Notes under the pieces: model-generated
What the model was told of the DNA's origin: nothing
The model's database searches: none
The model's input: only the letters and a program-made list of their open reading frames with translations
NCBI GenBank assembly: GCA_016208015.1
Contig: JACQYW010000015.1
Coordinates: 43,903-107,902 of the forward strand
Length of the DNA: 64,000 nucleotides
DNA from: Nitrosomonadales bacterium
GTDB taxonomy: Bacteria > Pseudomonadota > Gammaproteobacteria > Burkholderiales > Gallionellaceae
Reading direction: 5' to 3'
Program-made: the position numbers and the translations under genes
Shown: positions 37,681 through 55,034 of the stretch, one piece after another
Numbering within the stretch: the first letter of the stretch is position 1
How the letters are laid out: each line of letters opens with the position of its first letter

Positions 37681-37686
37681 AGGTTT

Positions 37687-39538: not shown

Positions 39539-40469
39539 GTTCCGCGGGCGACGATTTGATGCCGTAGACTTCGTACAGTATCTCGACGAAGCGCCGCGCC
39601 TGCGGCGACAGGAAACGCCCCTTGCGCAGGACCAGTCCGTAACCGCGCTGCGGGAAATATTGCTTGAGCGGGATGCGCACCAGTTTTTCGCTTCCGGTGA
39701 GGCAGATGTCGGTGACGATGGAGATGCCCATGCCCAGTTCGACGTATTTCTTGATGACTTCCCAGCCGCCCGCTTCCAGTGTCACGGTGAACGTCAGGTT
39801 GTGCTGCTGGAACACGTATTTCACCATGCGCCAGGTCGAGAGGTGGCGCGGCGGCAGGATCAGACCGTAATGGCTGATGTCTTCCAGTGTGACGCTGGAA
39901 TGCTTGGCCAGCGGATGGTCCAGCGGCACGATGAGCGCCGGGTCGTAAGTCACCACCGGCTGGTAGGTGATGTCGTCGGGTACGTCCAGCATGGAACCGA
40001 CCACCAGATCGATATCGTCGGCGCGCAGCATCTTCAGGCCGTCGCGCCCGGTCTCGTTGTGGATCTTGAGCTGGATGCGCGGGTGGGCGCTGACGAAACG
40101 GCGCACCGCTTCCGGCAATATATAAAGAATGGTGGATTCGCCCGCGCCGATGTTCAGTTCGCCGGAATCCAGTTTGCCGTGCTGTGCGGCGAAGTTCTCT
40201 TCCAGGCCGTCTATCCCCTTTACCAGCGGTTCCGACAGCGCAAACAAAGACTCGCCATCAGGAGTAAGCTTGAGCACGGGGCCGCGTCTTTCGAACAAGG
40301 TCACCCCCAGTTCCCGCTCCAGCGCCTGGATCTGCAACGTCACCGACGGCTGGCTCAGGAACAAATGCTGGGCGGCCAGAGTCACACTGCCGGTGCGAAC
40401 GACTTCGCAGAACGCACGCATCTGTTTGAGTCTGTTGTTTTTGTAGTAGCTTTGTTTTTCAGTGTTCAT
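39522..40469 (-). CDS. LysR-family transcriptional regulator, divergent from the rnf/por operon
   Basis: [28 protein letters not shown]; LTTR substrate-binding domain. Confidence 0.92.
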
Positions 40470-40697
40470 CCCGCCTCCCCGTGCCAGTACCGCGATTATT
40501 CATTTATTAATAGTAATGATTGAAACAATTGATTCGCGAAATGATTGTAGTTTGTTTAGTCTGCGTCCAACAAGAAAAACAGTAGAGACACAAGGGTGTA
40601 ATTGATTCACCTGGCGCTAGTGGGGCGTAAATAAGTGCAGCGATAGAGAGCCGGATTGCCGCGTTCTCTGCGCAAATTTATTGCAGCGGGGAGAGAC

Positions 40698-41582
40698 ATG
40701 AGTATTGTTTACAGCATTTTAGTCACAGGAGCCTTTATGGCCGGCCTCGGCGGCCTGCTGGCGATTCTGTTGGCTATTGCGAGCAAGAAGCTCTATGTCT
40801 TTGAAGACCCCCGTATCGAGCAAGTCGAAGAACTCCTTCCCCATTCCAATTGCGGCGCCTGCGGTACGGCAGGTTGCCATAACTTCGCCGAAAAGGCCGT
40901 CGCGGGCGAGATCGAGCCCGGCCGCTGCACGGTGAATACCCCCGACCAGAACAAGAACATCGCATCGTTGCTGGGTGTCGCCCTGGGCGATATCGAGAAA
41001 CGCGTGGCACGGTTGGCCTGCGCTGGCGGCAAGCATGTCGCCACGATGCGCGCCCAATACGCCGGACTTTCTTCCTGCCGCGCCGCGACCGTGGCAGGAG
41101 GCGGCGGCAAGAGCTGCGCCTGGGGTTGCCTCGGATTGGGCGATTGCGCCGACGTGTGCGATTTCGATGCCATCACCATGGATGTCCACGGTTTGCCGGT
41201 GGTCGACAGTGCCAAATGCACCGCCTGCGGCGACTGCGTCGATATCTGCCCGAAAGACCTGTTCTCGCTGCAAGTCATGTCGCATAAATTGTGGATGGCC
41301 TGCCGCAACGAAGAGAGCGATCCCGATGCCGCCGAAGCGGCTTGCGAAGTGGCCTGCACCGCCTGCGGGCGCTGCGTGGTCGACGGCGCTCCCGGCCTGA
41401 TCCATCTGGAACGCAATCTGGCCGTGATCGACTACGCCAAGAACGGGACAGCAAGCCGCGAGGCCATCGATCGCTGCCCCACCGGCGCCATCGTCTGGCT
41501 CGAGGGTGACCGCATCAGCAAAGGCAAAGCCGCAAAGAAAATCATCCGTATCGAACCATTACCTGCCACTACCGAGGCCTAG
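40698..41582 (+). CDS. rnfB: Rnf complex subunit B (polyferredoxin)
   Basis: N-terminal TM, LPHSNCGACGTAGC, CLGLGDCADVC, CTACGDCVDICP, CTACGRC...CPTGAI. Confidence 0.9.
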   Translation: MSIVYSILVTGAFMAGLGGLLAILLAIASKKLYVFEDPRIEQVEELLPHSNCGACGTAGCHNFAEKAVAGEIEPGRCTVNTPDQNKNIASLLGVALGDIEKRVARLACAGGKHVATMRAQYAGLSSCRAATVAGGGGKSCAWGCLGLGDCADVCDFDAITMDVHGLPVVDSAKCTACGDCVDICPKDLFSLQVMSHKLWMACRNEESDPDAAEAACEVACTACGRCVVDGAPGLIHLERNLAVIDYAKNGTASREAIDRCPTGAIVWLEGDRISKGKAAKKIIRIEPLPATTEA

Positions 41583-41590
41583 GGGGAATC

Positions 41591-44500
41591 ATGCTGAACA
41601 AACTCAAACAATTCAAATTGGCTGGCGCCGCTACCGGAGCCGATGGCAGCCGCACCAAATTCAAGTACCCCGGCACGCGCGATGCCATCGACGGCAACAC
41701 CGCCGTGATCATGGTGGAACGCGAAGCCTCGCAGGGCGCGGGCGCCTACCCCATCACGCCGTCCACGCAGATGGGCGAATACTGGGCGGAAGAAGTCGCC
41801 AAGGGCCACCTCAATACGGCAGGTCACCCGCTGATCTTCGTCGAGCCGGAATCCGAACACGCTGCTGCCGGTGTCACTGCCGGCATGTCGATGACCGGTC
41901 TGCGCGCGGTCAACTTCACTTCCTCGCAGGGTCTGGCCTTCATGCACGAATCGCTGTATGCCGCCGTCGGCAAGCGTCTGCCCTATGTGCTCAACCTCGG
42001 TTGCCGCGCCATCACCAAGGCCTCGCTGAACGTGCACTGCGCGCATGACGACTACCACTGTGCCGACGATACCGGTTTCATCCAGGTGATGGGCAAGAAC
42101 GCGCAGGAAGCCGCCGACCTCAACATGATCGCCCGCAAGACCGCCGAACTGGCGCTGACCCCGGCCATCGTGGCGCAGGACGGCTTTCTCACCACCCACC
42201 TGATCGAGCCGATGCAGGTGCCGGAACGCGAACTGATCGCCGAATATCTGGGCAATGCCGACGACCTCATCGACACCCCGACCCCCGCGCAGCAGATGCT
42301 GTACGGTCCCAAGCGCCGCCGCGTGCCGTCGAGCTGGGACGTGGACAATCCCATGCAGACCGGCGTGGTGCAGAACCAGGACGCCTACATGCAGGCCGTG
42401 GCCGCGCAGCGTCCGTATTTCTTCGACCATATCCCGGCGCTGTTCGACAAGAACGCGGAAGAGTTCCATGAACTGACTGGCCGCCGCTACAACCGTGTCG
42501 ATGCCTATCGTTGCGACGACGCCGACTACATCATCCTCGGCCAGGGCAGCATGACCGTGCAGGCCGCCGCCGTCGCCGACTGGCTGCGCGAGACGCGCAA
42601 GATCAAGGTGGGCGTGGTCAACATCACCATGTTCCGTCCTTTCCCCGGCGATCTGCTGGGCCAGGTGCTGAAAGGCAAGAAGGGCGTGGCCGTGCTGGAA
42701 CGCACCGACCAGCCGCTGTCGGAAGACCTGCCGCTGATGCGCGAAGTGCGCTCCACCATCACCAAATGTGTAGAGAATGCGCGCGAGAATTCCTATGCCG
42801 ATTACGCCTGCTACGAGAGCGCCAAGGACATGCCGTCGCTGTACTCCGGCTGCTACGGTCTGGGTTCGCGTGACCTGCAACCGGAAGGCCTGATCGCCGC
42901 CGTCGAAAACATGCTGCCCGGCGCGGCGCACCGCAAGTTTTACTATCTGTCCGTCGACTTCGTGCGCGACGAATCCGCCAATCCGAAACAGGAGATCCGC
43001 CAGCAGGAACTGCAGACCGCCTATCCCGGCATCAAGGCGTTGGCGCTGCGCGGCTCCGAGAATCCCAACCTGTTGCCCAAGAACGCCATCGCCGTGCGCA
43101 TGCACTCCATCGGCGGCTGGGGCGCGGTGACCACCGGCAAGAACCTGGCGATGACGCTGTTCGAACTGCTGGGCTGGGACATCAAGGCCAATCCGAAATA
43201 CGGTTCCGAGAAGAAGGGACAGCCGACCACCTATTATCTGTCCGCCGCGCCCGAGCCCATCCGCATCAACTGCGAATACACCAACGTCGACGTGGTGCTG
43301 TCGCCGGACCCGCAAGTGTTCGGCCACACCAATGCGCTGGAAGGCATGAAAGAGGGCGGCGTGTTCATCATCCAGAGCAATCTGGACAGTGCGGAAGCAG
43401 TATGGGAGACCTTCCCCATGCGTACCCAGCAATACATCGTCGACAAGAAGATCCGCGTGTTCTACCTCGATGCGTTCAAGATCGCGCGCGAGGAGTCGAG
43501 CAATGCCGACCTGCAGTTGCGCATGCAGGGCAACGCCTTCCAGGGTGCGTTCTTCCATGCCTCCGACGTGAAGGACCGTGCCGGTCTGAGCGAAGAGACA
43601 TTGTTCACCGCCATCGAGAATCAGCTCGAATCCAAGTTCGGCAAGAAGGGCAAGCGCATCGTCGATGACAACCTGCGCGTGGTGCGCCGCGGTTATGAGG
43701 AGATGTTCGAGATCAAGCCGGAGCAGATGAAGGTAGGCCAGCGCGCCAAGGTCGTGGGCAAGCCGGCTCCCGCGCTGCCCGTCATGCTGAAGCAACTGCC
43801 GGAAGGCGACGGCGGTCTCTCCGACATCCACCGTTTCTGGGAACAGACCGGCAGCTTCTACATGAAGGGCCAGGGTTCCGACAACCTGGTCGATCCGTTC
43901 ATGGGGCTGTCCGTCATCCCGGCCGTGACCGGTGTGTATCGCGACATGACGGGTGTGCGTTTCGAACATCCCGAGTGGAACGCGGAGAACTGCACCGCCT
44001 GCGGCGAATGCTTCACGCAATGCCCGGACAGCGCTATCCCCGGTCTGGTCTCGACCACCACCGATGTGCTGAATACCGCCATCCAGAACATCGAGATCGG
44101 CGGGCGTCCGACGCGTTTCCTGCGCAAGTTCAGCCGCGTCATCGACAAGAAATTGCGCAACGCGCTGGACAAGGACGGACTCGATGTGCGCGCGCTGCTG
44201 GCCAACGCCATCACCGAGGCGTTCGCGGAAGACCCGACCCAGGGTGACGACCGCGGCCGTCTGGAAGCGGAACTGAATCTGCTGCGCGAAGCGATCGGCG
44301 GCTTCAAGTTCGCCACGACCAAACCGTACTGGAACCAGAAAGAGAAGAAGGAGAAGGGCGCCGGCGGCCTGTTCTCCATCACCGTCAATCCCTATACCTG
44401 CAAGGGCTGCGCCTTGTGCGTGGAAGTGTGCGACGACGATGCGCTGAAGATGGTCACGCAGACCAAGGAGAGCATCGAGACGCTGCGCGACGACTGGAAC

Positions 44501-46522
44501 TTCTGGCTCGACCTGCCGACCACGCCGCCGCAATACAGCCGCATCGACGACCTGGACGAGAAGGTCGGCGCGCTGGAAACACTGCTGCTGGACAAGCACA
44601 ACTACCAGTCGCTGGCCAGCGGCGACGGTGCCTGCCTCGGTTGCGGCGAGAAGGGCACCATCCACCTGTTCACCAGCACGGTCACCGCGCTGCAGCAGCC
44701 GCGCGTGAAGAAGTTCCTCGGCAAGCTGGATACGCTGATCTCCGGTCTGGAGAACCATATCCGCACGAAGCTGAGCAGCTCGGTCGACCTGACCGACACG
44801 CAGGCGCTCATGCAAGCCGTGCAGGCGCACAGCGGGCACGATCTGACACTGGCCAACCTGTCGGAAAGCCTGTTGCAGAAACATCCGGGCCAGCCTATCG
44901 ATCCGCAATGGCTCAAGCGCGTGAGCCAGATGCTGGAGAAACTGAAGGACCTGCGCTGGCGTTATATGGAAGGCCCGAGCAAGAAGGGGCGCGCCGAGAT
45001 GGGTATCGTCAACTCGACCGGTTGCACCTCGGTGTGGGCATCCACTTTCCCGTTCAATCCCTACCCCTTCCCGTGGACATCGCACCTGTTCCAGGATTCG
45101 CCCTCGGTGGCGATGGGCGTGTTCGAAGGTCACATGGCCAAGATGGCGGAAGGTTTCAAGACCGTGCGCCAGGCCGAGAAAGAACTCGCGGGCGGATATG
45201 AGCCTGCCGAGAGCGACGACTTCTTCGCCCGCTTCAACTGGGAGCAGTTCAGCGAGGAAGAATGGCATCTGTGCCCGCCGGTCGTGGCGATGGGCGGCGA
45301 TGGCGCGATGTTCGACATCGGCTTCCAGAACCTGTCGCGCGCCCTGATGTCGGGCAAGCCGGTCAAGATCCTGATCGTCGACACGCAGGTGTATTCCAAC
45401 ACCGGCGGCCAGGCTTGCACCTCCGGCTTCATCAGCCAGGTGGCAGACATGTCGCCCTACGGCGCAAGCAAGCACGGCAAGACCGAGAAGCGCAAAGAGA
45501 TCAGCATCATCGGCATGGCTCACCGCACCTCGTTCGTGGCGCAGGGCGCGCTGTCCAACACCACGCACCTGCTGGAGAGCTTCATCGACGGCATCAACAG
45601 CCGTCACCCGGCATTGTTCAACGTGTACGCGGTATGCCCGCCGGAACACGGCGTCGGCGACAACAGTGCGGTGGCGCAAAGCAAGATGGCGGTGGAATCG
45701 CGCGCCTTCCCGCTGTTCCGCTACAACCCCGATCTGGGCGTGACCTTCTCCGAATGCGCCACGCTCGAAGGCAACCCGTCACTGGATGCCGACTGGCCGA
45801 CCTACAAGCTCGAGTATGCGGACGAGAGCGGCAACAAGCAGACGATGATGCTGCCGATGACCTTCGCCGATTTCGCGCTGAGCGAAGGACGTTTCGCCAA
45901 ACAGTTCAAGAAGGCGCCGCCGGAGACCTGGAACGACGACATGGTGCTGCTGGGCGATTTCCTCGAGCTGTCCGAGGACGAGCGCGAGGGCAAGTTCCCC
46001 TTCATCTGGTCGGTGGACAAGAAGAACCGCCTGATGCGCGTGCTGACCTCGGTGGAGATGGTGCGTGCCTGCGAGGAGCGTCTGCAGTTCTGGCACCAAC
46101 TGAAGGATGTGGCCGGTGTTGGCCGGGCCCGGGTCGGTGCAGTCGACGAAACGGCCATCGCCAACCGCGTGCGCCAGGAGCTTATCCAGAAGCTGTCTTC
46201 CGGTCTGGGCATCAGCTCCAGCGATGCGCCACAAGCAACCGCGGCCGCGTCACCCGCGGCAGCTGCGGGCGGTTACGAGGCCGTGTACGTGGACACACCG
46301 GAATGCACCGCCTGCGACGAATGCATCAACATCAACCCGAAAGTGTTTGCCTACAATGAAACGAAAAAAGTCGTTGTGCTCGACCCGAAGGCGGGCAGTT
46401 ATCTGGATCTCGTCAAAGCGGCGGAAAAGTGCACAGCCGGCATCATCCATCCCGGCACGCCCTGGAACATGAGCGAGGCGAATCTGGACAAACTGAAAGC
46501 GCGTGCGGCCAAGTTCAACTGA
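41591..46522 (+). CDS. por: Single-chain pyruvate:ferredoxin/flavodoxin oxidoreductase (1643 aa) with extra C-terminal ferredoxin domain
   Basis: YPITPST, CRAIT, CTACGECFTQCP, CKGCALCVEVC, GACLGCGE, TGC, GGDGAMFDIG...YSNTGGQ (TPP site); C-terminal CTACDEC...C. Confidence 0.92.
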   Translation: MLNKLKQFKLAGAATGADGSRTKFKYPGTRDAIDGNTAVIMVEREASQGAGAYPITPSTQMGEYWAEEVAKGHLNTAGHPLIFVEPESEHAAAGVTAGMSMTGLRAVNFTSSQGLAFMHESLYAAVGKRLPYVLNLGCRAITKASLNVHCAHDDYHCADDTGFIQVMGKNAQEAADLNMIARKTAELALTPAIVAQDGFLTTHLIEPMQVPERELIAEYLGNADDLIDTPTPAQQMLYGPKRRRVPSSWDVDNPMQTGVVQNQDAYMQAVAAQRPYFFDHIPALFDKNAEEFHELTGRRYNRVDAYRCDDADYIILGQGSMTVQAAAVADWLRETRKIKVGVVNITMFRPFPGDLLGQVLKGKKGVAVLERTDQPLSEDLPLMREVRSTITKCVENARENSYADYACYESAKDMPSLYSGCYGLGSRDLQPEGLIAAVENMLPGAAHRKFYYLSVDFVRDESANPKQEIRQQELQTAYPGIKALALRGSENPNLLPKNAIAVRMHSIGGWGAVTTGKNLAMTLFELLGWDIKANPKYGSEKKGQPTTYYLSAAPEPIRINCEYTNVDVVLSPDPQVFGHTNALEGMKEGGVFIIQSNLDSAEAVWETFPMRTQQYIVDKKIRVFYLDAFKIAREESSNADLQLRMQGNAFQGAFFHASDVKDRAGLSEETLFTAIENQLESKFGKKGKRIVDDNLRVVRRGYEEMFEIKPEQMKVGQRAKVVGKPAPALPVMLKQLPEGDGGLSDIHRFWEQTGSFYMKGQGSDNLVDPFMGLSVIPAVTGVYRDMTGVRFEHPEWNAENCTACGECFTQCPDSAIPGLVSTTTDVLNTAIQNIEIGGRPTRFLRKFSRVIDKKLRNALDKDGLDVRALLANAITEAFAEDPTQGDDRGRLEAELNLLREAIGGFKFATTKPYWNQKEKKEKGAGGLFSITVNPYTCKGCALCVEVCDDDALKMVTQTKESIETLRDDWNFWLDLPTTPPQYSRIDDLDEKVGALETLLLDKHNYQSLASGDGACLGCGEKGTIHLFTSTVTALQQPRVKKFLGKLDTLISGLENHIRTKLSSSVDLTDTQALMQAVQAHSGHDLTLANLSESLLQKHPGQPIDPQWLKRVSQMLEKLKDLRWRYMEGPSKKGRAEMGIVNSTGCTSVWASTFPFNPYPFPWTSHLFQDSPSVAMGVFEGHMAKMAEGFKTVRQAEKELAGGYEPAESDDFFARFNWEQFSEEEWHLCPPVVAMGGDGAMFDIGFQNLSRALMSGKPVKILIVDTQVYSNTGGQACTSGFISQVADMSPYGASKHGKTEKRKEISIIGMAHRTSFVAQGALSNTTHLLESFIDGINSRHPALFNVYAVCPPEHGVGDNSAVAQSKMAVESRAFPLFRYNPDLGVTFSECATLEGNPSLDADWPTYKLEYADESGNKQTMMLPMTFADFALSEGRFAKQFKKAPPETWNDDMVLLGDFLELSEDEREGKFPFIWSVDKKNRLMRVLTSVEMVRACEERLQFWHQLKDVAGVGRARVGAVDETAIANRVRQELIQKLSSGLGISSSDAPQATAAASPAAAAGGYEAVYVDTPECTACDECININPKVFAYNETKKVVVLDPKAGSYLDLVKAAEKCTAGIIHPGTPWNMSEANLDKLKARAAKFN

Positions 46523-46547
46523 TATGAAATTGCATATTCAAATCGAC

Positions 46548-46673
46548 CGTCATTCCGGCGCAGGCCGGAATCCAGGTGATTCAATATCTCCCGCGCAGCG
46601 GGACAAAGCCTTGGTTTCGTCCGCTTCGCGGAGGTATTTTTCTGGCTGGATACCGGCCTGCGCCGGTATGACG
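46548..46673. repeat. 126-bp palindromic REP-like element between por and rnfC
   Basis: CGTCATTCCGGCGCAGGCCGGAATCCAG / CTGGATACCGGCCTGCGCCGGTATGACG (28-bp IR, 2 mismatches), plus an inner stem. Confidence 0.8.
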
Positions 46674-46700
46674 AAGTTTTGTGCGAATGATTGAATTGGG

Positions 46701-48047
46701 ATGAATATGCGACTGCCCTTCTTCCATCGCGCGGCGACCTTTGAGCACGGTATCCATCCGGACTACCACAAGGAGACCGGGAGCCTGCCGATCAAGCGCC
46801 TGGCTTTTGCGCCGCGCCTGATCGTGCCGCTGTCGCAGCACATCGGCAAACCTGCCGTGTGTTGCGTCAGCGTGGGAGAAGAAGTTTTGCGCGGCCAGGT
46901 CATCGCGACGGCGGATGGTTTCGTCTCGCTGCCCGTGCATGCCCCGGCGACCGGTGTGGTGGAAGCCATCGGCGTGATGCCCGCAGCCAACGGCAAGATG
47001 GTGGATTCCATCACCCTCCGCGTGTACGAGGCCGACAGCCAGCAAGTGCAGGTGAGCGCTCCGCGCGATATCGAAGCGATGGACAAGAAGGAACTGCTGG
47101 CCGCGATCCAGAGCACCGGCATCTCCGGTCTGGGCGGCGCGACCTTTCCCGCGCACGTGAAGCTCAGCGTGCCGCCGGATGTCGTGATCGACACCATGGT
47201 CGTCAACGGCGCCGAATGCGAACCCTTCCTGACCTGCGACCACCGCATCATGGTGGAGCGCACCAAGGACCTGATCCGCGGCATCCGCATCGCGATGAAG
47301 GTCAGCGGTGCGCCGCGCACCATCATCGGTGTCGAAGACAACAAGCCGGATGCCATCGCCGCGATCCGGGCGGCATTGCCCGCCGACGGCACGATCACGG
47401 TGCAGGCGCTGGAGACCAAATATCCGCAGGGCGCGGAAGACACCATCATCTACGCGCTGCTCGGGCGCGAGATCCCCGCCGGTCAGCGTCCTGCCTCCAT
47501 CGGCGTGCTGGTGAACAACGTGATGACGCTGGCTTATCTGGGTCGCCTGCTGCCCGCGGGCGAAGGCATCGTCGAGCGCGTGCTCACCGTGGCCGGTCCC
47601 GGCGTGGAAAAGCCCGGCAACTACATCGTTCCCATCGGCACCCCGTTGCGCTTCCTGCTCGAACAGGTCGGTGCAAAGAGCAGCGCGCAGGAGATCATCC
47701 TCGGCGGGCCGATGATGGGCATGACCATCTCGTCGCTGGACGTGCCGGTGACCAAGGGCACTTCCGGTGTACTCGCCTTCGGCAAGGGCGAATTGCAGGA
47801 GGAAACGCCGCGCGTCTACGCCTGCATCAAGTGCGGCGAATGCCTCAAGGTGTGCCCGAAGTTCCTCAATCCCTCGCAACTCGGCTTGCTGGCGGCCAAG
47901 CGCGAATATGCCGAGATGGCCGAGCGCTACAACCTGGACCGCTGTTTCGAGTGCGGCTGCTGCAGCTACGTCTGCCCGTCGCATATTCCGCTGGTGCAAC
48001 AGTTCCGCATCGCCAAAGCGGTCAATAGAGAGAAAGCCTCAGCATGA
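46701..48047 (+). CDS. rnfC: Rnf subunit C
   Basis: PLSQHIGKP, GLGGATFP, NGAECEPFLTCD, KYPQGAE, GGPMMG, CIKCGEC, CFECGCCSYVCPS. Confidence 0.95.
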   Translation: MNMRLPFFHRAATFEHGIHPDYHKETGSLPIKRLAFAPRLIVPLSQHIGKPAVCCVSVGEEVLRGQVIATADGFVSLPVHAPATGVVEAIGVMPAANGKMVDSITLRVYEADSQQVQVSAPRDIEAMDKKELLAAIQSTGISGLGGATFPAHVKLSVPPDVVIDTMVVNGAECEPFLTCDHRIMVERTKDLIRGIRIAMKVSGAPRTIIGVEDNKPDAIAAIRAALPADGTITVQALETKYPQGAEDTIIYALLGREIPAGQRPASIGVLVNNVMTLAYLGRLLPAGEGIVERVLTVAGPGVEKPGNYIVPIGTPLRFLLEQVGAKSSAQEIILGGPMMGMTISSLDVPVTKGTSGVLAFGKGELQEETPRVYACIKCGECLKVCPKFLNPSQLGLLAAKREYAEMAERYNLDRCFECGCCSYVCPSHIPLVQQFRIAKAVNREKASA

Positions 48048-49084
48048 GCATGGAACTCCGTACCTCCCCGCATCAAATAAGCGACCGCAGCGTCGAACGC
48101 ATCATGAAGCACGTGGTGCTGTCGCTGCTGCCGGTCTGCGGATTCTCGATCTGGCAATACGGCCTGTCGGCACTGGCGCTGTTGCTGACCGTGACCGCGA
48201 CCTGTCTTGCCACCGAGCGCCTGCTCAATCGTGCCGCCAGCCAGCCGAGCACGCTGAACGACTGGAGCGCCACCATCACCGGCGTGCTGCTGGCGCTGAC
48301 GCTGCCGCCCGCGTTCCCGCTGTGGATGGCGGTCGTCGCCGGTTTTGTCGCCATCGCCATCGGCAAGGCGCTGTTCGGCGGACTGGGCTTCAACGTGTTC
48401 AACCCGGCGCTGATCGGCCGCGCTTTCGTGCAGGCCGCTTTCCCGGTCGCCATCACCACCTGGGTCCCGGCGTTCTCGGCGCAACGCTTCAGCGAGTTCG
48501 TACCGACCACGCTGACCGCGCCGCTGATGATGCCGCCCGATATCGTCGAATGGATCAAGCTGCAAGCCGTCGATGCCTTCACCGGCGCGACGCCGCTGGC
48601 GCGCTGGAAGTTCGAGAACGTGGTCGCCTCTTCCTATGACTTGCTGACCGGTGTCGTGACCGCTTCCGCAGGCGAGACCTCGGCCATCCTCATCCTGTTG
48701 TGCGGCGCTTACCTCGCCGCACGCAAATTCATGGACTGGCGCATCCCGGTGGCGGTGCTGGCTTCGGCTGCACTCACCGCGTGGATGTTCCAGCTGTACG
48801 ACCCGACCCACTACCCCGCACCGAGCTTCGTGCTGCTCTCCGGCGGTCTGATGCTGGGCGCGGTGTACATGGCGACCGACATGGCGACCTCGCCGGTGAC
48901 GCCGCTGGGTGTGTGGATCTACGGCGCGGTGATCGGCGTGGTGACGGTGATGATCCGTTATTTCGGCGGCCTGACCGAGGGGGTGATGTACGCCATTCTG
49001 CTCGGCAACGCGCTGACCCCGTTCATCGACCTGTACACGCAGCCGCGCGTGTTCGGGACCCGCCAGCAAGGGAAGAAAAAATGA
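48044..49084 (+). CDS. rnfD: Rnf subunit D
   Basis: SPH, FGGLGFNVFNPA, DAFTGATPL (FMN-Thr), GETS, MATD. Confidence 0.95.
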   Translation: MSMELRTSPHQISDRSVERIMKHVVLSLLPVCGFSIWQYGLSALALLLTVTATCLATERLLNRAASQPSTLNDWSATITGVLLALTLPPAFPLWMAVVAGFVAIAIGKALFGGLGFNVFNPALIGRAFVQAAFPVAITTWVPAFSAQRFSEFVPTTLTAPLMMPPDIVEWIKLQAVDAFTGATPLARWKFENVVASSYDLLTGVVTASAGETSAILILLCGAYLAARKFMDWRIPVAVLASAALTAWMFQLYDPTHYPAPSFVLLSGGLMLGAVYMATDMATSPVTPLGVWIYGAVIGVVTVMIRYFGGLTEGVMYAILLGNALTPFIDLYTQPRVFGTRQQGKKK

Positions 49085-49758
49085 GCGAGCCGACCCAAGT
49101 TCAAGTGACGCCAAGCGGCAAGATGATCGCCACCATGGCGCTGGTCGCCAGCATCTGTGGCGTGCTCATCGTCGGCGCCTTCGAGGGCACGCAGGATGCG
49201 ATCGCCGAGAACAAACGCATCATGCTCGAGCGCGCCGTGTTCAAAGTGTTGCCCGGAGCGGCGAGCGTGCGTGAATACGCCGCGACGAGCGCCGGTATCC
49301 GGCAGCTGGCAGCGGGCGCAGCCTTGCCGGAAGGCGGCGTGAAGTTCTATGCCGCTTACGACCAGGCCGGTGTGCTGAAAGGTGTCGCCGCCGAAGCCGC
49401 CGGCAAGGGTTATGCCGACGTGGTGCGCGTGCTTTACGGTTATGACGCGGAACGCCAGGTCATCATCGGGATCGGCGTGGTGTCCATGCGCGAAACACCG
49501 GGCATCGGCGACAAGATCATCACCGACCAAGCGTTCCTGAAGAACTTCGAGGCATTGGATGTGCGCGTGAATGCCGAGCTGACGGCGCTGGCCAATGCGG
49601 TGAAAGTCGTCAAGCACGGCAGCAAGACCGATCCGTGGCAGATCGATGCCATCGCCGGTGCGACGGTGACTTCCAAAGCGGTCGGTCGCGGCATCAACGA
49701 CAGCGCGCAGAAACTGCTGCCGCTGCTGGTCCCCCATATCGCGGAGTTGAAATCATGA
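49081..49758 (+). CDS. rnfG: Rnf subunit G
   Basis: N-terminal TM, GKGY, ETPGIG, IDAIAGATVTS (FMN site). Confidence 0.93.
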   Translation: MSEPTQVQVTPSGKMIATMALVASICGVLIVGAFEGTQDAIAENKRIMLERAVFKVLPGAASVREYAATSAGIRQLAAGAALPEGGVKFYAAYDQAGVLKGVAAEAAGKGYADVVRVLYGYDAERQVIIGIGVVSMRETPGIGDKIITDQAFLKNFEALDVRVNAELTALANAVKVVKHGSKTDPWQIDAIAGATVTSKAVGRGINDSAQKLLPLLVPHIAELKS

Positions 49759-50390
49759 GCCTGCCCAATCAAGCCGACGAAGGCATCACCTTCGACACCT
49801 TCATGGAAGGCGTGTGGCGCCAGAACCCGGTGTTCGTGATGGTGCTGGGCATGTGCCCGACGCTGGCGGTCACCGTCTCCGCCGTCAACGGCCTGTCGAT
49901 GGGCGTCGCCACCCTGTTCGTGCTGGTCAGTTCCTGTCTGCTGGTGTCGCTGATCCGCCACCTGGTGCCCAAGGAAGTGCGCATCGCCACCTACATCGTG
50001 ATCATCGCCACTTTCGTGACGCTGGTCGATTACCTGATCCAGGCGGCCAGTCTGGCCCTGTATGAAGCACTGGGCGCGTTCATCCAGCTGATCGTGGTCA
50101 ACTGCATCATCCTCGGCCGCGCCGAAGCGCACGCGTCGAAGAACCCGCCGCTGAAAGCCGTGATCAACGCGCTGGGCATGGGCGTCGGTTTCGCCATCGG
50201 CCTGTTCGCGCTGGGCGCGACGCGCGAGATCCTGGGGGCGGGCAAGCTGTTCGGCATCACGCTGTTCGGCGAGAATTTCCAGCCCTGGGTGGTGATGGTG
50301 TTGCCGCCGGGCGGCTTCTTCGTGCTGGGCGGCTGGCTGTTGCTGTTCTCGCTGCTGCGCAGCCGCAAGGAAGGGAAGGTGCAGGCATGA
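49755..50390 (+). CDS. rnfE: Rnf subunit E
   Basis: QNPVF...LGMCPTLA, LIVVNCIILGRAE, PPGGF. Confidence 0.95.
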   Translation: MSLPNQADEGITFDTFMEGVWRQNPVFVMVLGMCPTLAVTVSAVNGLSMGVATLFVLVSSCLLVSLIRHLVPKEVRIATYIVIIATFVTLVDYLIQAASLALYEALGAFIQLIVVNCIILGRAEAHASKNPPLKAVINALGMGVGFAIGLFALGATREILGAGKLFGITLFGENFQPWVVMVLPPGGFFVLGGWLLLFSLLRSRKEGKVQA

Positions 50391-50971
50391 ACGAATCATT
50401 GAGCCAGATATTCATCGGCACGCTGCTGACCAACAACTTCGTGCTGGCCATGTTCCTCGGTCTGTGCCCCTTCCTTGGCGTATCGAGCCGTCTGGGCACC
50501 GCGGTTCCGATGGGCGCGGCGACGACCTTCGTGATGCTGGTCGCGTCGGTGTGCGCCTACGCGCTGAACCTGCTGCTGAACTATTTCCAGCTCGAATTCC
50601 TGCGCCTGATCTCCTACATCGTGGTGATCGCTTCTTCGGTGCAACTGGTCGAGATGGTGATGAAGAAGTACAGCCCGGCGCTGTTCCGCGCGCTCGGCAT
50701 CTTCCTGCCGCTGATCACCACCAACTGCGCGGTGCTGGCGGTGGCGCTGTTCCAGACCGCGCGCGAATACAGTTTCTCGCAATCGCTGGTGTTCGCGCTC
50801 GGCGGCGGTGCCGGCTTCACGCTGGCGCTGGTGCTGATGGCCTCGCTGCGCGAGCGCTTGCAACTCTCCAACGTGCCGACGCTGGTGCAGGGCACAGCGC
50901 TATCGCTGATCCTGGCGGGCCTGCTGTCGCTGACCTTCATGGGCTTCGCCGGATTGGGAGCGGGCGAATGA
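50387..50971 (+). CDS. rnfA: Rnf subunit A
   Basis: NNFVLAMFLGLCPFLG, LGIFLPLITTNCAVL. Confidence 0.95.
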   Translation: MNESLSQIFIGTLLTNNFVLAMFLGLCPFLGVSSRLGTAVPMGAATTFVMLVASVCAYALNLLLNYFQLEFLRLISYIVVIASSVQLVEMVMKKYSPALFRALGIFLPLITTNCAVLAVALFQTAREYSFSQSLVFALGGGAGFTLALVLMASLRERLQLSNVPTLVQGTALSLILAGLLSLTFMGFAGLGAGE

Positions 50972-51153
50972 TCTATTTGAAAACGATACTGATCGTACTG
51001 GGCCTGCTGGCCGGCTGGCTGGTCGTGCGCGCCATCGCGCGCCGCTTCGCCGCGCATCATCCCGAGTTCGGCGCGGTGCGCGAAGAGGGTGAAGGCTGCG
51101 GCTGCGGCAACCACAAGTGCGGCACCGACCAGTGCAAGCGCGAGGCGCATTGA
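50968..51153 (+). CDS. 61-aa membrane microprotein with Cys-rich C-terminal tail
   Basis: ATGA overlap with the rnfA stop; MIYLKTILIVLGLLAGWLVVRAIARR...GCGCGNHKCGTDQC. Confidence 0.7.
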   Translation: MIYLKTILIVLGLLAGWLVVRAIARRFAAHHPEFGAVREEGEGCGCGNHKCGTDQCKREAH

Positions 51154-51207
51154 GAGCAGATATTTATTTGTTCGGAAGATAGCAGTTCAACTTAACAGGA
51201 GAAGTTC

Positions 51208-53583
51208 ATGCAACCGTACGTCATTCCTTTCCAGTCTCTGGGAATCGCAGACATCCCGGAAGTGGGCGGAAAGAACGCATCGCTCGGAGAGATGATCTCC
51301 AACCTGAGTTCATCCGGCGTCCATGTGCCCGGCGGTTTCGCTACCACGGCACAGGCATACCGTGATTTTCTGGCGCATGACGGACTGGACAAACGCATCG
51401 AACAGGCGCTGGTCAAACTGAACATCGAGGATGTCACCGCGCTGGCCGAAGCCGGTCGCATGATCCGCAACTGGATCGTCGAAGCGCCGCTGCCCAAGCG
51501 ACTGGAAGACGAGATCCGCACCCACTACGCCAAGCTGGCCGCGGAAGGCGAAGGCAGCTTCGCGGTGCGTTCGTCGGCGACGGCAGAAGACCTGCCGGAC
51601 GCTTCGTTCGCTGGACAGCAGGAGACTTTCCTGAACATCCAGGGCATCGAGAACATCCTGCACGCGATCCGCGAAGTGTTCGCCTCGCTGTACAACGACC
51701 GCGCGATCTCTTACCGCGTGCACAAAGACTTTACGCATGCCGACGTGGCGCTGTCCGCCGGGGTGCAGCGCATGGTGCGTTCCGATCTGGGCGCGTCCGG
51801 CGTGTTGTTCACGCTGGATACCGAATCCGGTTTCCGCGACGCGGTGTTCGTCACTTCGTCTTTCGGTCTGGGCGAGATGGTAGTGCAGGGTGCGGTGAAT
51901 CCGGACGAGTTCTATGTGCACAAACAGCAACTGGCTGCGGGCTATCCGGCTGTCATCCGCCGCGCGCTGGGTTCCAAACAACAACGCATGGTGTTCGATG
52001 AGCAGCGTTCAGCCGGGCGTTCCTGCCGCATCGAACCGGTGCCGGTCGCCGACCAGCAGCGCTTCTCGCTCAGCGATGAAGACGTGCTGCAACTGGCACG
52101 CTACGCGGTCTCCATCGAGAAGCACTACGGGCGTCCGATGGACATCGAGTGGGGCAAGGACGGCATCGACGGCAAGCTCTACATCCTGCAAGCGCGCCCC
52201 GAGACGGTGAAGTCGAACGCGGGCAACGGCGGCACGGAGAAATTCCGCCTGCACCAGCGCGGCACCGTGCTGGTCGAAGGCCGCGCCATCGGCCAGAAGA
52301 TCGGCTCCGGCCGCGTGCGCATCGTCGCCAGCACCGCCGAGATGGACAAGGTGCAGGAAGGCGACGTGCTGGTCACCGACATGACCGACCCGAACTGGGA
52401 GCCGGTGATGAAGAAGGCTGCCGCCATCATCACCAACCGCGGCGGCCGCACCTGCCATGCCGCCATCATCGCGCGCGAACTGGGCATCCCCGCCATCGTC
52501 GGTTGCGGCCATGCCACCACCGCCTTGCAGGAAGGCGAGACCGTCACCGCCTCCTGTGCCGAAGGTGACACCGGTTACGTCTATCACGGCAAGCTGAATT
52601 TTGAAGTGGCCGTGCACAGCGAAGAAGAACTGCCGCCCATTCCCGTCAAGCTCATGCTCAATGTGGGCAATCCCACGCTGGCCTTCGAGTTCGCGCAACT
52701 GCCGTCGGCGGGCGTCGGTCTGGCGCGCCTCGAATTCATCATCAACAACCTCATCGGCATCCACCCCAAGGCGGTGCTGGAGCACAACAAGCTGCCGGCC
52801 AAACTTCACGAAGCCGTGCTGCAACGCTCGGCGGGTTACGCCAGCCCCGAGGAGTTCTACGTCGAGAAGATCACCGAGGGCGTGTCCACACTGGCGGCCG
52901 CGTTCTGGCCCAAGCCCGTGATCGTGCGCATGTCCGACTTCAAGTCGAACGAATACCGCAAGCTGATCGGCGGCGATATCTACGAGCCGATGGAAGAGAA
53001 CCCGATGATCGGTTTCCGCGGCGCGGGCCGTTACGTCGCGGCGAATTTCTCGGATTGTTTCGAATTGGAATGCCGCGCGATGAAGCGTGCGCGCGAGAAG
53101 CTCGGCTACACCAACATCGAGCTGATGATCCCCTTCGTGCGCACCGTCAAGGAAGCGAGCGAAGTCGTCTCCACGCTGGCCAAGCACGGTCTGAAACGCG
53201 GCGACAAAGGCCTGCGCCTGATCATGATGTGCGAGATCCCGTCCAACGCGCTACTGGCGGAAGAGTTCCTGCAACACTTCGACGGCTTCTCCATCGGCTC
53301 CAACGACCTGACCCAGCTCACGCTCGGTCTGGACCGCGACTCCAGCCTGGTGGCGGACCGCTTCGACGAGCGCGACCCGGCGGTGAAGGCATTGCTGAAG
53401 ATGGCGATCACGACCTGCAACCGTCTGGATAAATACGTGGGCATCTGCGGACAGGGCCCATCCGATCATTTCGATTTCGCCGAGTGGCTGGTTGAAGCAG
53501 GCATACAGACCATGTCGCTGAACCCGGACACGGTCATCGAGACCTGGCGCAGATTGGCCGAGAAAGGAATTGCCAAGCCTTAA
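51208..53583 (+). CDS. ppsA: Phosphoenolpyruvate synthase
   Basis: [50 protein letters not shown]. Confidence 0.97.
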
Positions 53584-53686: not shown

Positions 53687-53734
53687 CCCCTCCCCCATCC
53701 CACTCTCCCCTTTTGGGGGGAGGGGTCTTTTTTT
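53687..53734 (+). terminator. Terminator/REP-like hairpin after ppsA
   Basis: CCCCTCCCCC...GGGGGAGGGG followed by a T-run. Confidence 0.6.
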
Positions 53735-53829: not shown

Positions 53830-54231
53830 CTACGCAGCCTTAACCTCGTTGAGCAGGTCTGGGTGACGGTCCAACACCTTGAGCAGCTTCACCAAAGCCA
53901 GCGGCGGCTTGGTCTTCCCGTTCTCGTAACGCGAAAAGGCATTGATACCGCCACCGAATATTTCTGAGGCTTCGCGCTGGTCGAGAGCAAGCTTCTTGCG
54001 CACACTGGCGATATAGCCGGGGTCGATATAAGCGGCATTCACTTGCTTGTTGAATTGCAGCATCAAGTCACTGGTGCGAGTCGATTCTCCAAGGTCAAGA
54101 ATGGACTCGCCACAAGAGGGACAAAAATCGCCTGTCACCGCTACCATAGTGATGGTTTCACCCTTGTAGGTATAAGGCAGATCGCGGGTATCGTGGATCA
54201 GTTCGGCCGCGCCACATACTGGACATTTCAT
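53830..54231 (-). CDS. mqsA: MqsA antitoxin (Zn finger + HTH)
   Basis: MKCPVCG...CPSCGE; IFGGGINAFSRYENGKTKP. Confidence 0.95.
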   Translation of the reverse strand: MKCPVCGAAELIHDTRDLPYTYKGETITMVAVTGDFCPSCGESILDLGESTRTSDLMLQFNKQVNAAYIDPGYIASVRKKLALDQREASEIFGGGINAFSRYENGKTKPPLALVKLLKVLDRHPDLLNEVKAA

Positions 54232-54233
54232 GT

Positions 54234-54530
54234 TCATAGCTCCTTGAAAGACACAATCAGCACGTCATCAATGACCGTTAGCTTCAGATACACATCGCCC
54301 GCCTGCGTGCTTGTGCGGTAAACGTCCTGCCAGATCGTGTGATCGGCGTGCGTGGTCATGCTCTTGTAAAAATCCGCCGCCTTAAGTGCCATTACCACGG
54401 CCAGCATGTCAGGAACCCCAAGCCCCATCTGAGCCGCACCCAACACCGCCGAGTAAGTGGTGCGCACTTTTCCGGCCTCGACCAAGGTTCTGACGATAAC
54501 CAGCTTGCAGTGCGCGGTTCGTTTCTCCAT
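54234..54530 (-). CDS. mqsR: MqsR mRNA-interferase toxin
   Basis: MEKRTAHCKL, DFYKSMTT, WQDVYR, VSFKEL. Confidence 0.95.
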   Translation of the reverse strand: MEKRTAHCKLVIVRTLVEAGKVRTTYSAVLGAAQMGLGVPDMLAVVMALKAADFYKSMTTHADHTIWQDVYRTSTQAGDVYLKLTVIDDVLIVSFKEL

Positions 54531-54600: not shown

Positions 54601-54800
54601 GGGCACCTCTAAAAATTCCAATTTCGTCATTCCGGCGGAGGCCGGAATCCAGTGAATTTAATAAATATGCCTTTGATGTTTGTCCTTGCGATGCAAGGAA
54701 TTTTTTAAGGACTGGATTCCGGCCTCCGCCGGATAACCAGCCACTTGCCAGCTTGCTGGCTTAGTGGATTGGCTAGTCGTTCCATCAATGACGGGGTTTA
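54601..54800. mobile_element. Composite MITE/REP element
   Basis: Starts GGGCACCTCTAAAAATT (same terminus as 21458). Contains CGTCATTCCGGCGGAGGCCGGAATCCAGT (54625) / ACTGGATTCCGGCCTCCGCCGGA (54711), the same family as 46548. Confidence 0.65.
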
Positions 54801-55034
54801 GGAGAAGCGTTGCACCGATATACGTTTTCCACATAACTCATTTTGATTGCAATCTCGTTACAAACCCAATGCTGTAGCGCGTTTGAGACGGTCGCGTGAA
54901 TTTTTTATTACAAGTCGGGTTTGAAAAGTTTCTTCGGCAGAATGCGCCTCGAATTCTCACTCAGGGGAATTTATCTGATTCCGTTGGTCGGTGTGTCGAT
55001 CAACGCAACCAACCCAAACTAAAGGAGCTTCAAG

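Follow-up and report, generated by a model that had tools for sequence, protein, structure and literature searches.

PFOR and Rnf, textbook enzymes of strict anaerobes that are joined by free ferredoxin, here form one genetic unit and probably one physical unit. In the window (the whole 64,000-nucleotide stretch of Gallionellaceae DNA analyzed), a plus-strand run reads rnfB, a PFOR-type por, rnfC-D-G-E-A, a gene for a 61-aa peptide, and ppsA. We propose that this run encodes a LysR-controlled, self-contained machine linking the interconversion of pyruvate and acetyl-CoA + CO2 to NAD(H) and an ion gradient, and that here it probably acts as a pyruvate synthase feeding PpsA; we give the proposal about an even chance of being correct. 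Pfam and NCBIfam profile searches recovered every gene named in the initial annotation on the plus strand, with coordinates exact or at most 1 base off. The features are as follows.

38663–39538, plus strand: ppsR, predicted PEP synthase regulatory kinase/pyrophosphorylase (PF03618 Kinase-PPPase, 260.5 bits); the true start is perhaps slightly downstream of 38663
39522–40469, minus strand: lysR, LysR-type regulator (HTH_1 and LysR_substrate domains)
40507–40536, no strand assigned: conserved candidate LysR operator, TTAATAGTAATGATTGAAACAATTGATTCG
40698–41582, plus strand: rnfB, 294 aa (PF04060 and Fer4 domains)
41591–46522, plus strand: por, single-chain PFOR-type 2-oxoacid:ferredoxin oxidoreductase, 1643 aa
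46202–46519, plus strand: linker (residues 1538–1561) and ferredoxin domain (residues 1562–1643) inside por
46523–46700, no strand assigned: por–rnfC spacer, 178 bp, holding a REP-like palindromic unit in two inverted copies plus a weak terminator-like hairpin
46547–46575 and 46646–46673: the REP-like units of the spacer, inverted copies
46620–46632: the weak terminator-like hairpin of the spacer
46701–48047, plus strand: rnfC, 448 aa, NADH/FMN-binding subunit (TIGR01945, 491 bits)
48044–49084, plus strand: rnfD (PF03116, 352 bits; TIGR01946, 296 bits), 4-bp overlap with rnfC
49081–49758, plus strand: rnfG (TIGR01947, 82 bits, below the 102-bit cut-off and still the best family), its ATG overlapping the rnfD stop
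49755–50390, plus strand: rnfE (TIGR01948, 224 bits), ATGA overlap with rnfG
50387–50971, plus strand: rnfA (TIGR01943, 243 bits), overlapping the rnfE stop
50968–51153, plus strand: 61-aa membrane peptide gene, ATGA overlap with rnfA
51208–53583, plus strand: ppsA, PEP synthase (pyruvate, water dikinase; NF005057, 1229 bits against a cut-off of 598; TIGR01418, 1149 bits)
53703–53734, plus strand: strong intrinsic terminator 3' of ppsA, a 9-pair stem (6 G-C) followed by a T-run

The Rnf–PFOR arrangement recurs far outside chance. In other genomes of Beta- and Gammaproteobacteria, rnfB lies upstream of PFOR in 79 of the 80 best-matching loci (RnfB identity 59–89%), and rnfCDGEA flanks PFOR wherever the contig extends that far; one locus, L067, carries a giant PFOR without Rnf. 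This synteny bears out the earlier view of Rnf plus PFOR as a dedicated, conserved unit. The core is common to many sulfur and iron oxidizers, and its carriers include purple sulfur bacteria (Thiocapsa, Ectothiorhodospira); Sideroxydans lithotrophicus ES-1, Sideroxyarcus emersonii, and Thiocapsa roseopersicina are cultured examples. The gene order also differs, as had been claimed, from that of the same genome's two further rnfABCDGE operons, both of ordinary order, one of which lies ~8 kb from nifH. The place of ppsA is less fixed: it ends the run here but falls outside the conserved core, following rnfA in only 15 of 54 loci, while 16 of 54 carry an FNR-type ferredoxin:NADP reductase gene after the module and none has both. 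ppsA and ppsR flank the module in Gallionellaceae and, differently arranged, in several gammaproteobacterial lineages; ppsR sits next to lysR in several Gallionellaceae loci and 3' of ppsA in gammaproteobacterial ones. Two side observations run against a synthase direction: the FNR-type gene suits NADPH-making pyruvate oxidation at least equally, and the ppsA linkage also suits a "pyruvate utilisation" operon that sends part of the pyruvate to PEP synthesis and part to oxidation.

The tight spacing reported for the run holds except at one junction. The rnfB stop is followed by 8 nt and then the por ATG at 41591, as annotated, and every junction from rnfC through the peptide gene is a 4-bp ATGA overlap, but por and rnfC are 178 bp apart. 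The REP-like palindrome of that spacer has 131 short blastn matches genome-wide, and the insert is missing from close relatives, in which the por stop directly adjoins rnfC; together with the weak hairpin, it could partially uncouple por and rnfC expression in this strain. ppsA begins 54 nt past the peptide gene with no terminator in the gap, and ppsA, as anticipated, ends the run; no strong plus-strand terminator other than the one at 53703–53734 occurs from rnfB to that point. Contigs from soil and sediment metatranscriptomes of relatives cross the rnfB/por, por/rnfC, C/D, D/G, G/E, A/peptide, and peptide/ppsA junctions (a relative's contig covers 51067–51405 at the last). These bridges support the run as a single unit, a reading tempered by the contigs being strandless and possibly DNA carry-over and by the REP insert of this strain.

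The por product is ~470 residues longer than an ordinary PFOR, C-terminal ferredoxin domain included. Its Pfam domains (POR_N, PFOR_II, POR, Fer4, TPP_enzyme_C) follow the order I-II-III, ferredoxin domain, TPP domain, and it is collinear with Moorella PFOR 6CIN (E 3e-91), which is also the top Foldseek match of an AF2 model of moderate quality (pLDDT 67.5). Family-specific helical inserts occupy residues ~823–903 and ~1019–1126, and a beta-rich domain spans ~1383–1538. The domain order and GDG...N site are those of a single-chain PFOR, as are the 12 Cys of three canonical [4Fe-4S] clusters; these Cys and the GGDG...N TPP/Mg site are invariant across 51 homologues. Alignments likewise keep YPITP, Arg139, GGDGAMFDIG, DTQVYSNTGGQ, and every cluster cysteine. 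The invariant Y53–P57 and R139 predict a pyruvate-type pocket, in which one Ile of Moorella/Desulfovibrio PFOR is Val here (6CIN alignment). TIGR02176 matches in three stretches and stays below its equivalog cut-off (423.5 bits versus 911.35), a shortfall due to the inserts and divergence, and pyruvate is therefore assigned as the substrate from motifs. Kor- and oxalate-type models score far below PFOR/PorA models, which give the best full-length and subunit matches; the genome has no POR_N-type gene besides por.

The C-terminal ferredoxin proposed for this protein is present. Fer4_13 matches residues 1567–1620, and the segment has a structural-database match in 1DAX, D. africanus ferredoxin I (E 6e-5). 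The domain holds a single cluster with ligands Cys1572, 1575, 1578, and 1614, all four invariant in 51 sequences, which places a fourth cluster behind an Ala/Ser/Pro-rich linker. In the AF2 model the linker is predicted to be disordered (pLDDT <50), and the ferredoxin domain scores 66–89.

The run encodes the complete set of six Rnf subunits (A, B, C, D, E, and G). Four of them, RnfC, D, E, and A, pass their TIGR cut-offs; RnfB and RnfG fall below theirs, with Rnf models still the best match. RnfB combines a membrane anchor at the N terminus with an Fe-S domain and a polyferredoxin part, and by sequence it is of the acetogen/clostridial type: among solved structures it comes closest to A. woodii 9ERI_B (177 bits, residues 6–270) and C. 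tetanomorphum 7ZC6_B (162 bits), with only 41 bits for A. vinelandii 8AHX_B. Its identity to the RnfBs of the two further operons in this genome is only 25–28%. RnfC matches 7ZC6_C (359 bits), 8AHX_C (349 bits), and 9ERI_C (345 bits). PpsA passes the PEP synthase equivalog cut-off and carries PPDK_N, mobile, and PEP-binding Pfam domains.

The 61-aa peptide, predicted to be translationally coupled to rnfA, carries a single TM helix together with an HPEFG motif, and four cysteines lie in its C-terminal part. Homologues lie directly after rnfA in 59 of 61 loci and keep an invariant Pro, Gly, and three Cys, with the fourth Cys nearly invariant. The peptide has no Pfam match, and it makes a candidate assembly factor or extra Rnf subunit. 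It resembles NqrM (PF04400, Na+-NQR maturation) in architecture only, in its single TM helix and four cysteines; neither the peptide nor 28 homologues matched that family at E ≤ 1.

Upstream, lysR diverges from rnfB across 228 bp, as first described, and combines the marks of a LysR system: N-terminal HTH_1, C-terminal substrate-binding domain, divergence, and a dyad block. In Beta- and Gammaproteobacteria, a homologue (62–93% identity) diverges from the same place at 25 of 54 long loci. The candidate dyad block adjoins lysR, with a core dyad ATTG-AAA-CAAT at 40519–40529; in 21 aligned lysR–rnfB intergenic regions, the block ATTGAAAyAATTGAT is kept from Gallionellaceae to gammaproteobacterial loci while the remaining spacer diverges. 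The LysR regulator would presumably bind there. ppsR lies just past lysR, its end converging with the lysR 3' end, so that the ppsR/ppsA pair brackets the module.

The genome's carbon routes bear on direction. The host iron oxidizer fixes CO2 through RuBisCO. Its aceE (pyruvate dehydrogenase) is shared by 147 of 151 genomes of the family, and the module is thus an add-on, never a replacement for that enzyme. No true isocitrate lyase was found in the genome or in 150 of the 151 family genomes (one carries it), so PFOR would be the sole C2-to-C3 route; AcsA is encoded. Pyruvate dehydrogenase is irreversible and PFOR reversible, and in aerobic diazotrophs Rnf pushes electrons from NADH to ferredoxin. 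From RuBisCO, the retained pyruvate dehydrogenase, and the missing glyoxylate shunt, the module would most likely run "uphill"; gene content (pyruvate dehydrogenase, no isocitrate lyase, AcsA, flanking ppsA/ppsR) favors acetyl-CoA + CO2 to pyruvate to PEP.

Mechanistically, the giant PFOR would perform the TPP chemistry. Electrons would pass along its three canonical [4Fe-4S] clusters and reach the protein's own ferredoxin domain; held on its flexible linker, this domain would deliver them to RnfB, the polyferredoxin of a third, dedicated Rnf (RnfCDGEA). This Rnf would trade electrons with NAD+/NADH while translocating H+ or Na+, served by the Cys-rich 61-aa peptide as assembly factor or additional subunit. 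Uphill, NADH and the ion gradient would reduce the tethered ferredoxin, PFOR would make pyruvate by carboxylating acetyl-CoA (which AcsA could supply from acetate, for example), and PpsA, co-transcribed and PpsR-controlled, would turn that pyruvate into PEP. Of these steps, we infer the electron transfer from tethered ferredoxin to RnfB, the coupling to ions, which way the reaction runs, and what the peptide does. A stronger version, which we entertain only tentatively and think rather unlikely, makes the giant PFOR a stable peripheral Rnf subunit docking on RnfB, the whole being a ferredoxin-free, ion-translocating pyruvate:NAD+ oxidoreductase or NADH-driven synthase supercomplex. Docking would proceed through the helical inserts and beta-rich C-terminal domain, the tethered ferredoxin would be a swinging arm, and the peptide would either join the complex as a seventh subunit or serve it as a dedicated metal-delivery factor. 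If true, oxygen-respiring autotrophs would perform a CO2-fixing step at about −500 mV with no soluble low-potential carrier exposed to O2.

The same hard-wired machine could instead run mainly in the oxidative direction, as an energy-conserving alternative to pyruvate dehydrogenase (pyruvate + CoA to acetyl-CoA + CO2), with Rnf re-oxidizing the tethered ferredoxin for a gain of NADH and ion-motive force, or of NADPH via FNR elsewhere. We regard this as possible, though on the unlikely side. It would serve when O2 is low, when NADH/NAD+ is high, or when the cell grows on pyruvate or lactate; PpsA would be co-induced because PpsA and PFOR both consume pyruvate, and a pyruvate-sensing LysR would account for this. 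By established redox potentials, the pyruvate couple lies ~180 mV from NAD+, a span that would benefit energy-limited lithotrophs. RnfB is of the ferredoxin-oxidizing type of acetogens and clostridia, an FNR-type gene stands 3' of the module in 16 of 54 loci, and a 2014 Solemya paper reads its cluster in this direction (PMC4287430). The oxidative gain would nevertheless be only incremental, since essentially every genome of the family has pyruvate dehydrogenase; a gluconeogenic ppsA behind an oxidative module is the less economical pathway, and the genome lacks another C2-to-C3 route although AcsA is present.

It is improbable, in our view, that gene order reflects shared regulation only, the products being neither physically nor exclusively coupled and the PFOR ferredoxin domain and Rnf supplying a general low-potential pool (nitrogenase, radical-SAM enzymes, other ferredoxin users). 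The host is a diazotroph with nifH, a relative's locus L067 keeps the giant PFOR without Rnf, and PFOR–RnfB docking is itself something we infer, all of which suits a shared pool. Yet a separate rnfABCDGE operon already lies near nifH, a covalently tethered ferredoxin is ill-suited to distant soluble enzymes, and rnfB immediately upstream in 79 of 80 best-matching loci of two classes exceeds usual co-regulation synteny. Another 2-oxoacid as substrate (such as 2-oxobutyrate, glyoxylate/oxalate, or 2-oxoglutarate), with ppsA an unrelated neighbor, would fit the 423 bits against an equivalog cut-off of 911 and the pocket Val in place of Ile. We consider it very improbable: YPITP and the carboxylate-binding Arg are PFOR-type and invariant, PFOR/PorA models match best with Kor- and oxalate-type models far weaker, and repeated ppsA/ppsR linkage in two proteobacterial classes suits pyruvate.

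Known systems each share part of this design. A. woodii (9ERI) and C. tetanomorphum (7ZC6) Rnf have the same six subunits and polyferredoxin-type RnfB, with RnfC and RnfD equally close, but they use free ferredoxin, are ordered rnfCDGEAB, and have no oxidoreductase gene within the operon; compared with A. woodii RnfB, the one here is missing the last ferredoxin module, and its host is instead a microaerophilic lithotroph with two other Rnf operons. The homodimeric single-chain PFORs (M. thermoacetica 6CIN, D. africanus 1B0P, and NifJ/YdbK, TIGR02176) share the domain order, TPP site, and three [4Fe-4S] clusters; the ~470 residues that the protein here has in excess make up helical inserts in its ferredoxin and TPP domains, a beta-rich domain toward the C terminus, the flexible linker, and a fused ferredoxin with the fourth cluster. 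Rnf1 of Azotobacter vinelandii (8AHX) is likewise the Rnf of an oxygen respirer, in which the ion gradient presumably drives electrons from NADH onto a low-potential carrier that serves a single dedicated client; that client, however, is nitrogenase, reached via free ferredoxin/flavodoxin, the RnfB is short, and the order is rnfABCDGE. An operon of that kind exists separately in this genome, beside nifH. In Euglena and Cryptosporidium, pyruvate:NADP+ oxidoreductase joins a PFOR to a flavoprotein reductase; it too carries its electron acceptor on the PFOR polypeptide and wires pyruvate oxidation to a pyridine nucleotide. Its partner is a soluble FMN/FAD reductase with neither membrane complex nor ion coupling, whereas the PFOR of this locus is fused to a small ferredoxin and has a separate membrane pump as its reductase.

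The closest precedent is rnf2 of the Solemya velum gill symbiont, a chemolithoautotroph that, as the paper describes it, has PFOR between rnfB2 and rnfC2 in the order rnfB-PFOR-rnfCDGEA, besides an ordinary rnfABCDGE operon (Dmytrenko et al. 2014, PMC4287430). A single sentence of that genome paper reads the cluster as pyruvate giving electrons to Rnf; its treatment of rnf2 includes no account of a tethered ferredoxin, peptide, LysR, or ppsA, and no experiment. The suggestion that the system is undescribed is overstated for its gene order, noted in passing in 2014; our literature search found no experiments or biochemistry on any Rnf-embedded giant PFOR family member, and a term search of a November 2026 review of PFOR diversity (PMC13768988) returned no passage on an Rnf-embedded or ferredoxin-fused class.

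The unit is widespread among oxygen-respiring iron and sulfur oxidizers, purple sulfur bacteria, and invertebrate symbionts. In the 1960s, Buchanan, Evans, and Arnon reportedly found that Chromatium, including its extracts, and Rhodospirillum assimilate acetate and CO2 through a ferredoxin-dependent pyruvate synthase and then PEP synthase, the sequence (acetyl-CoA + CO2 to pyruvate to PEP) proposed for this locus; to our knowledge, that classical work identified neither the genes nor the source of reduced ferredoxin. Running in reverse, the module would offer Calvin-cycle autotrophs without a glyoxylate shunt a cheap path from acetate and CO2 to PEP, and would name the long-missing reduced ferredoxin source of the purple bacteria's pyruvate synthase. 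Running forward, it would be an energy-conserving pyruvate dehydrogenase substitute for energy-starved lithotrophs. A tethered-ferredoxin pyruvate synthase tolerating microoxic cells would also interest CO2-fixation engineering. In either direction, the module changes how carbon and energy are budgeted in models of Gallionellaceae, Thiobacillus, Rhodocyclaceae, and chemosynthetic symbionts.

Pfam and NCBIfam scans, combined with direct reading of the sequence, confirmed nearly to the base the plus-strand run that the initial annotation had read as rnfB, a pyruvate:ferredoxin oxidoreductase (PFOR) gene, rnfCDGEA, a microprotein gene, and ppsA, divergent from a LysR gene; direct reading also bore out the start of por 8 nt after rnfB. 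The host genome comprises 2.57 Mb in 18 contigs. The window spans 43903–107902 of contig C11, and its best protein matches are in Sideroxydans, Sideroxyarcus, and other Gallionellaceae.

Features of the Rnf–PFOR locus (window coordinates)
38663–39538: ppsR (PF03618), just beyond lysR
39522–40469, minus strand: LysR-type regulator gene, divergent from rnfB with 228 bp between
40698–41582, plus strand: rnfB (Pfam/NCBIfam, direct reading)
41591–46522, plus strand: por, PFOR-type, 1643 aa, 8 nt past rnfB
46547–46575 and 46646–46673: REP-like units
46701–48047, plus strand: rnfC, 178 nt past por
48044–49084, plus strand: rnfD (Pfam/NCBIfam, direct reading)
49081–49758, plus strand: rnfG (Pfam/NCBIfam, direct reading)
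49755–50390, plus strand: rnfE (Pfam/NCBIfam, direct reading)
50387–50971, plus strand: rnfA (Pfam/NCBIfam, direct reading)
50968–51153, plus strand: 61-aa peptide gene (direct reading)
51208–53583, plus strand: ppsA, 54 nt past the peptide gene

From rnfC through the peptide gene, neighbouring genes all overlap by 4 bp (ATGA), and the sole strong plus-strand intrinsic terminator of the run (~53703–53734) lies 3′ of ppsA. Adjoining lysR is a candidate operator, the dyad block ATTGAAAyAATTGAT (40519–40533), which is kept while the rest of the spacers diverged.

The giant PFOR is the product of the sole POR_N-type gene in the host genome. Its sequence aligns collinearly with two single-chain PFORs, from Moorella thermoacetica (6CIN; E 3e-91) and from Desulfovibrio africanus (1B0P). 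It scores 423 bits against the PFOR equivalog model (cut-off 911), a low value because the protein is divergent and ~470 residues longer. Alignments of 10 and 51 homologues identified as invariant the YPITP motif (residues 53–57), the carboxylate-binding Arg139, the GGDGAMFDIG/DTQVYSNTGGQ TPP-Mg site, and the full set of twelve cysteines for the three canonical [4Fe-4S] clusters; the catalytic apparatus is intact. An AlphaFold2 model of residues 444–1643 (51-sequence alignment; mean pLDDT 67.5) places a four-helix insert (~823–903) between the two cluster motifs of the ferredoxin domain, a long-helix insert (~1019–1126) in the TPP domain, and a well-predicted beta-rich domain at ~1383–1538. 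An Ala/Ser/Pro-rich linker (1538–1561; pLDDT <50) then leads to a folded single-cluster ferredoxin (1562–1643), which matches Fer4_13 and D. africanus ferredoxin I (1DAX; E 6e-5) and whose four cysteines are invariant across the 51 homologues. A Foldseek search with this partial model returned PFOR/OFOR structures only; the additional C-terminal domain drew no match of its own.

The Rnf genes of the window form the third Rnf operon of the genome. The other two are arranged rnfABCDGE, as is usual in proteobacteria; one is on contig C8 and the other on C9, ~8 kb from nifH. Window subunits share only 37–51% identity with their paralogues, and RnfB only 25–28% with the RnfBs of the other two operons. 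Window RnfB instead resembles the polyferredoxin RnfBs of A. woodii (9ERI_B; 177 bits over residues 6–270) and C. tetanomorphum (7ZC6_B; 162 bits), whereas its match to A. vinelandii RnfB is confined to the N-terminal domain (41 bits). For RnfC and RnfD, the clostridial and Azotobacter complexes are at nearly the same distance. In 59 of 61 loci, the gene after rnfA encodes a homologue of the 61-aa peptide with a single TM helix, four cysteines, and an HPE(F/L)GP motif. The peptide matches no Pfam family, and we rejected its identification as NqrM, as neither it nor 28 homologues matched PF04400.

A pattern scan with one genome per species recovered relatives of the giant PFOR at 530 loci or more, and the best 80 of these loci were fetched with 10-kb flanks. 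They include Betaproteobacteria (Gallionellaceae, Thiobacillus, Hydrogenophilus, Rhodocyclaceae such as Sulfuritalea and Sulfurisoma, Rhodoferax, and Methylotenera) and Gammaproteobacteria (Sedimenticola, Thiodiazotropha, Ectothiorhodospira, Thiocapsa, Thiothrix, and an Acidithiobacillales MAG). The Rnf–PFOR linkage, for which the initial annotation had proposed a synteny survey, is kept in 79 of these best 80 loci: rnfB (59–89% identity) lies directly 5′ of the giant PFOR gene, and rnfCDGEA lies downstream wherever the contig is long enough. The exception is a Dechloromonas MAG (L067:7244–12235) encoding a ferredoxin-fused giant PFOR without rnf genes nearby; an MFS transporter gene is directly upstream, and unrelated genes also adjoin. 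Two further layouts were observed. Five Thiobacillus/Hydrogenophilales-type loci (L017, L018, L020, L022, and L029) carry an extra 750–900 bp between the rnfC and rnfD matches, suggesting a long RnfC C-terminal extension or an additional small gene. In a gammaproteobacterial MAG (L070:14905–20304), 5.4 kb separates por from rnfC and only partial matches to rnfG, rnfE, and rnfA are present, which could reflect insertion with decay of the Rnf genes.

Genes flanking the module vary more. Among the 54 loci with at least 3 kb beyond the peptide gene, ppsA follows that gene in 15 and an FNR-type FAD/NAD(P) reductase gene in 16, with both together in none. A divergent LysR gene (62–93% identity) is present in 25 of 54 long loci. 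The ppsA-bearing loci belong to Gallionellaceae, a Novimethylophilus MAG, and several gammaproteobacterial lineages, the last with ppsR 3′ of ppsA. Among relatives lacking the module, one has a classical divergent ppsA/ppsR pair and two show no ppsR within 1.5 kb; the gene orientations in the window do not fit simple insertion of the module between an ancestral divergent pair. Of 151 genomes sampled from the family, 46 encode the giant PFOR, and they cover 5 of 18 genera. Within the genus of the window organism, 29 of 31 relatives encode it (window genome not counted).

The window organism appears in none of the RNA runs and at near-full sequence only in DNA runs (groundwater metagenomes), so the RNA evidence comes from relatives. 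Soil and sediment metatranscriptome contigs of relatives (80–95% identity) cover the entire run, and some bridge rnfB/por, rnfC/rnfD, rnfD/rnfG, rnfG/rnfE, rnfA/peptide, and peptide/ppsA; contigs from two runs also bridge por/rnfC. These contigs, which are unstranded and may include DNA, support co-transcription without proving it. The 178-bp por–rnfC spacer of the window consists of two inverted copies of a ~28-nt REP-like palindrome plus a weak hairpin. In the por/rnfC-bridging contigs of the two runs, only 12 nt lie between the por stop codon and the start of rnfC, showing that these relatives lack the 178-bp spacer. The REP-like unit (CGTCATTCCGGCGCAGGCCGGAATCCAGG, ~28 nt) has 131 short matches genome-wide, mostly as inverted pairs, and the pair between por and rnfC is particular to this strain. 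A dedicated regulatory terminator was accordingly rejected as the main reading of the gap, which is a genome-wide REP-like pair missing in close relatives.

Other features of the window (window coordinates)
29689–31845, minus strand: 718-aa ORF, no Pfam match at E ≤ 1e-5
35356–37470, minus strand: 704-aa ORF, no Pfam match at E ≤ 1e-5
37624–38703, plus strand: 359-aa ORF, no Pfam match at E ≤ 1e-5
53830–54530, minus strand: MqsA-type antitoxin region (PF15731, 213 bits)
54625–54652 and 54712–54733: REP-like units
54957–56123, minus strand: 388-aa ORF, no Pfam match at E ≤ 1e-5
56398–57477: porin gene, in the lower-GC stretch at 54–58 kb

The MqsA-type gene opens this lower-GC stretch (GC 0.53 vs. 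0.60), and a 98-aa ORF directly upstream, likewise on the minus strand, probably encodes the MqsR toxin. The four long ORFs lacking Pfam matches could be spurious, given the GC-rich DNA, or could encode uncharacterised proteins. GC dips to 0.48 at 8001–10000 (window average elsewhere ~0.60), possibly marking foreign DNA or an RNA gene.

The host genome encodes one RuBisCO large subunit (459-aa open frame, a length we take to be typical of form II), pyruvate dehydrogenase E1 (1506 bits), and acetyl-CoA synthetase (997 bits). It lacks a PhaC_N-type PHA synthase and a true isocitrate lyase (ICL), the best ICL match being a 58-bit partial one. That match lies a few kilobases from an Acs paralogue (660 bits) at C8:526000–535000; the two are probably methylisocitrate lyase and propionyl-CoA synthetase, respectively, suggesting a methylcitrate-cycle cluster. 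Across the 151 family genomes, aceE occurs in 147 and ICL in 1, and no complementary pattern links the module to ICL or pyruvate dehydrogenase: ICL is nearly always absent and aceE nearly always present, with or without the module. The module therefore always adds to pyruvate dehydrogenase and never replaces it, and where present would be the sole enzyme able to turn C2 into C3.

Synteny, the separate RnfB and Rnf core, the LysR gene, and the peptide bear out the dedicated Rnf–PFOR module proposed in the initial annotation and strongly support a functional unit comprising a tethered-ferredoxin PFOR, its own RnfB and Rnf core, a LysR regulator, and a Cys-rich membrane peptide. Loose co-regulation, with PFOR and Rnf feeding a general ferredoxin pool, is a minor alternative, as is an oxidoreductase substrate other than pyruvate. 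From family knowledge, we infer that the tethered ferredoxin would pass electrons to RnfB and that the module would be ion-coupled.

In the synthesis direction, NADH and ion-motive force would reduce ferredoxin, reduced ferredoxin would let PFOR carboxylate acetyl-CoA, and PpsA would then make PEP. That this NADH/ion-driven route operates in the window organism is a reading we regard as evenly poised. It is favored because pyruvate dehydrogenase already performs the oxidation yet is irreversible, because there is no glyoxylate shunt, because AcsA is present, and because two proteobacterial classes show linkage of ppsA and ppsR to the module, in differing arrangements. The same sequence—acetyl-CoA carboxylation to pyruvate, then PEP—was reportedly described in the 1960s with extracts of Chromatium, and the module occurs in purple sulfur bacteria. 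The main rival has this machinery working in the opposite direction, as energy-conserving pyruvate oxidation, and is possible though somewhat unlikely; it accommodates the acetogen-type RnfB and the FNR-linked variants at least as well. The pyruvate/acetyl-CoA couple lies ~180 mV from NAD+, against roughly two translocated ions; being this near equilibrium, the couple may be used in both directions.

The initial annotation regarded the system as a candidate for an undescribed one; its gene order had already been noted by Dmytrenko et al. 2014 (PMC4287430), who found a PFOR gene between rnfB2 and rnfC2 in the Solemya velum symbiont and suggested pyruvate as electron donor for that rnf2 cluster. 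Work on the Riftia symbiont reported Rnf clustered with rTCA genes and a "PFOR-like" isoform, and papers on Gallionellaceae connect Rnf only with nitrogenase or with ferredoxin supply in general. In the term-searched portions of a November 2026 review of PFOR diversity (PMC13768988), Rnf appears only as a generic ferredoxin sink, with no ferredoxin-fused or Rnf-embedded PFOR class. Our literature search found no biochemical or genetic study of the module, which is uncharacterised, well conserved, and testable.
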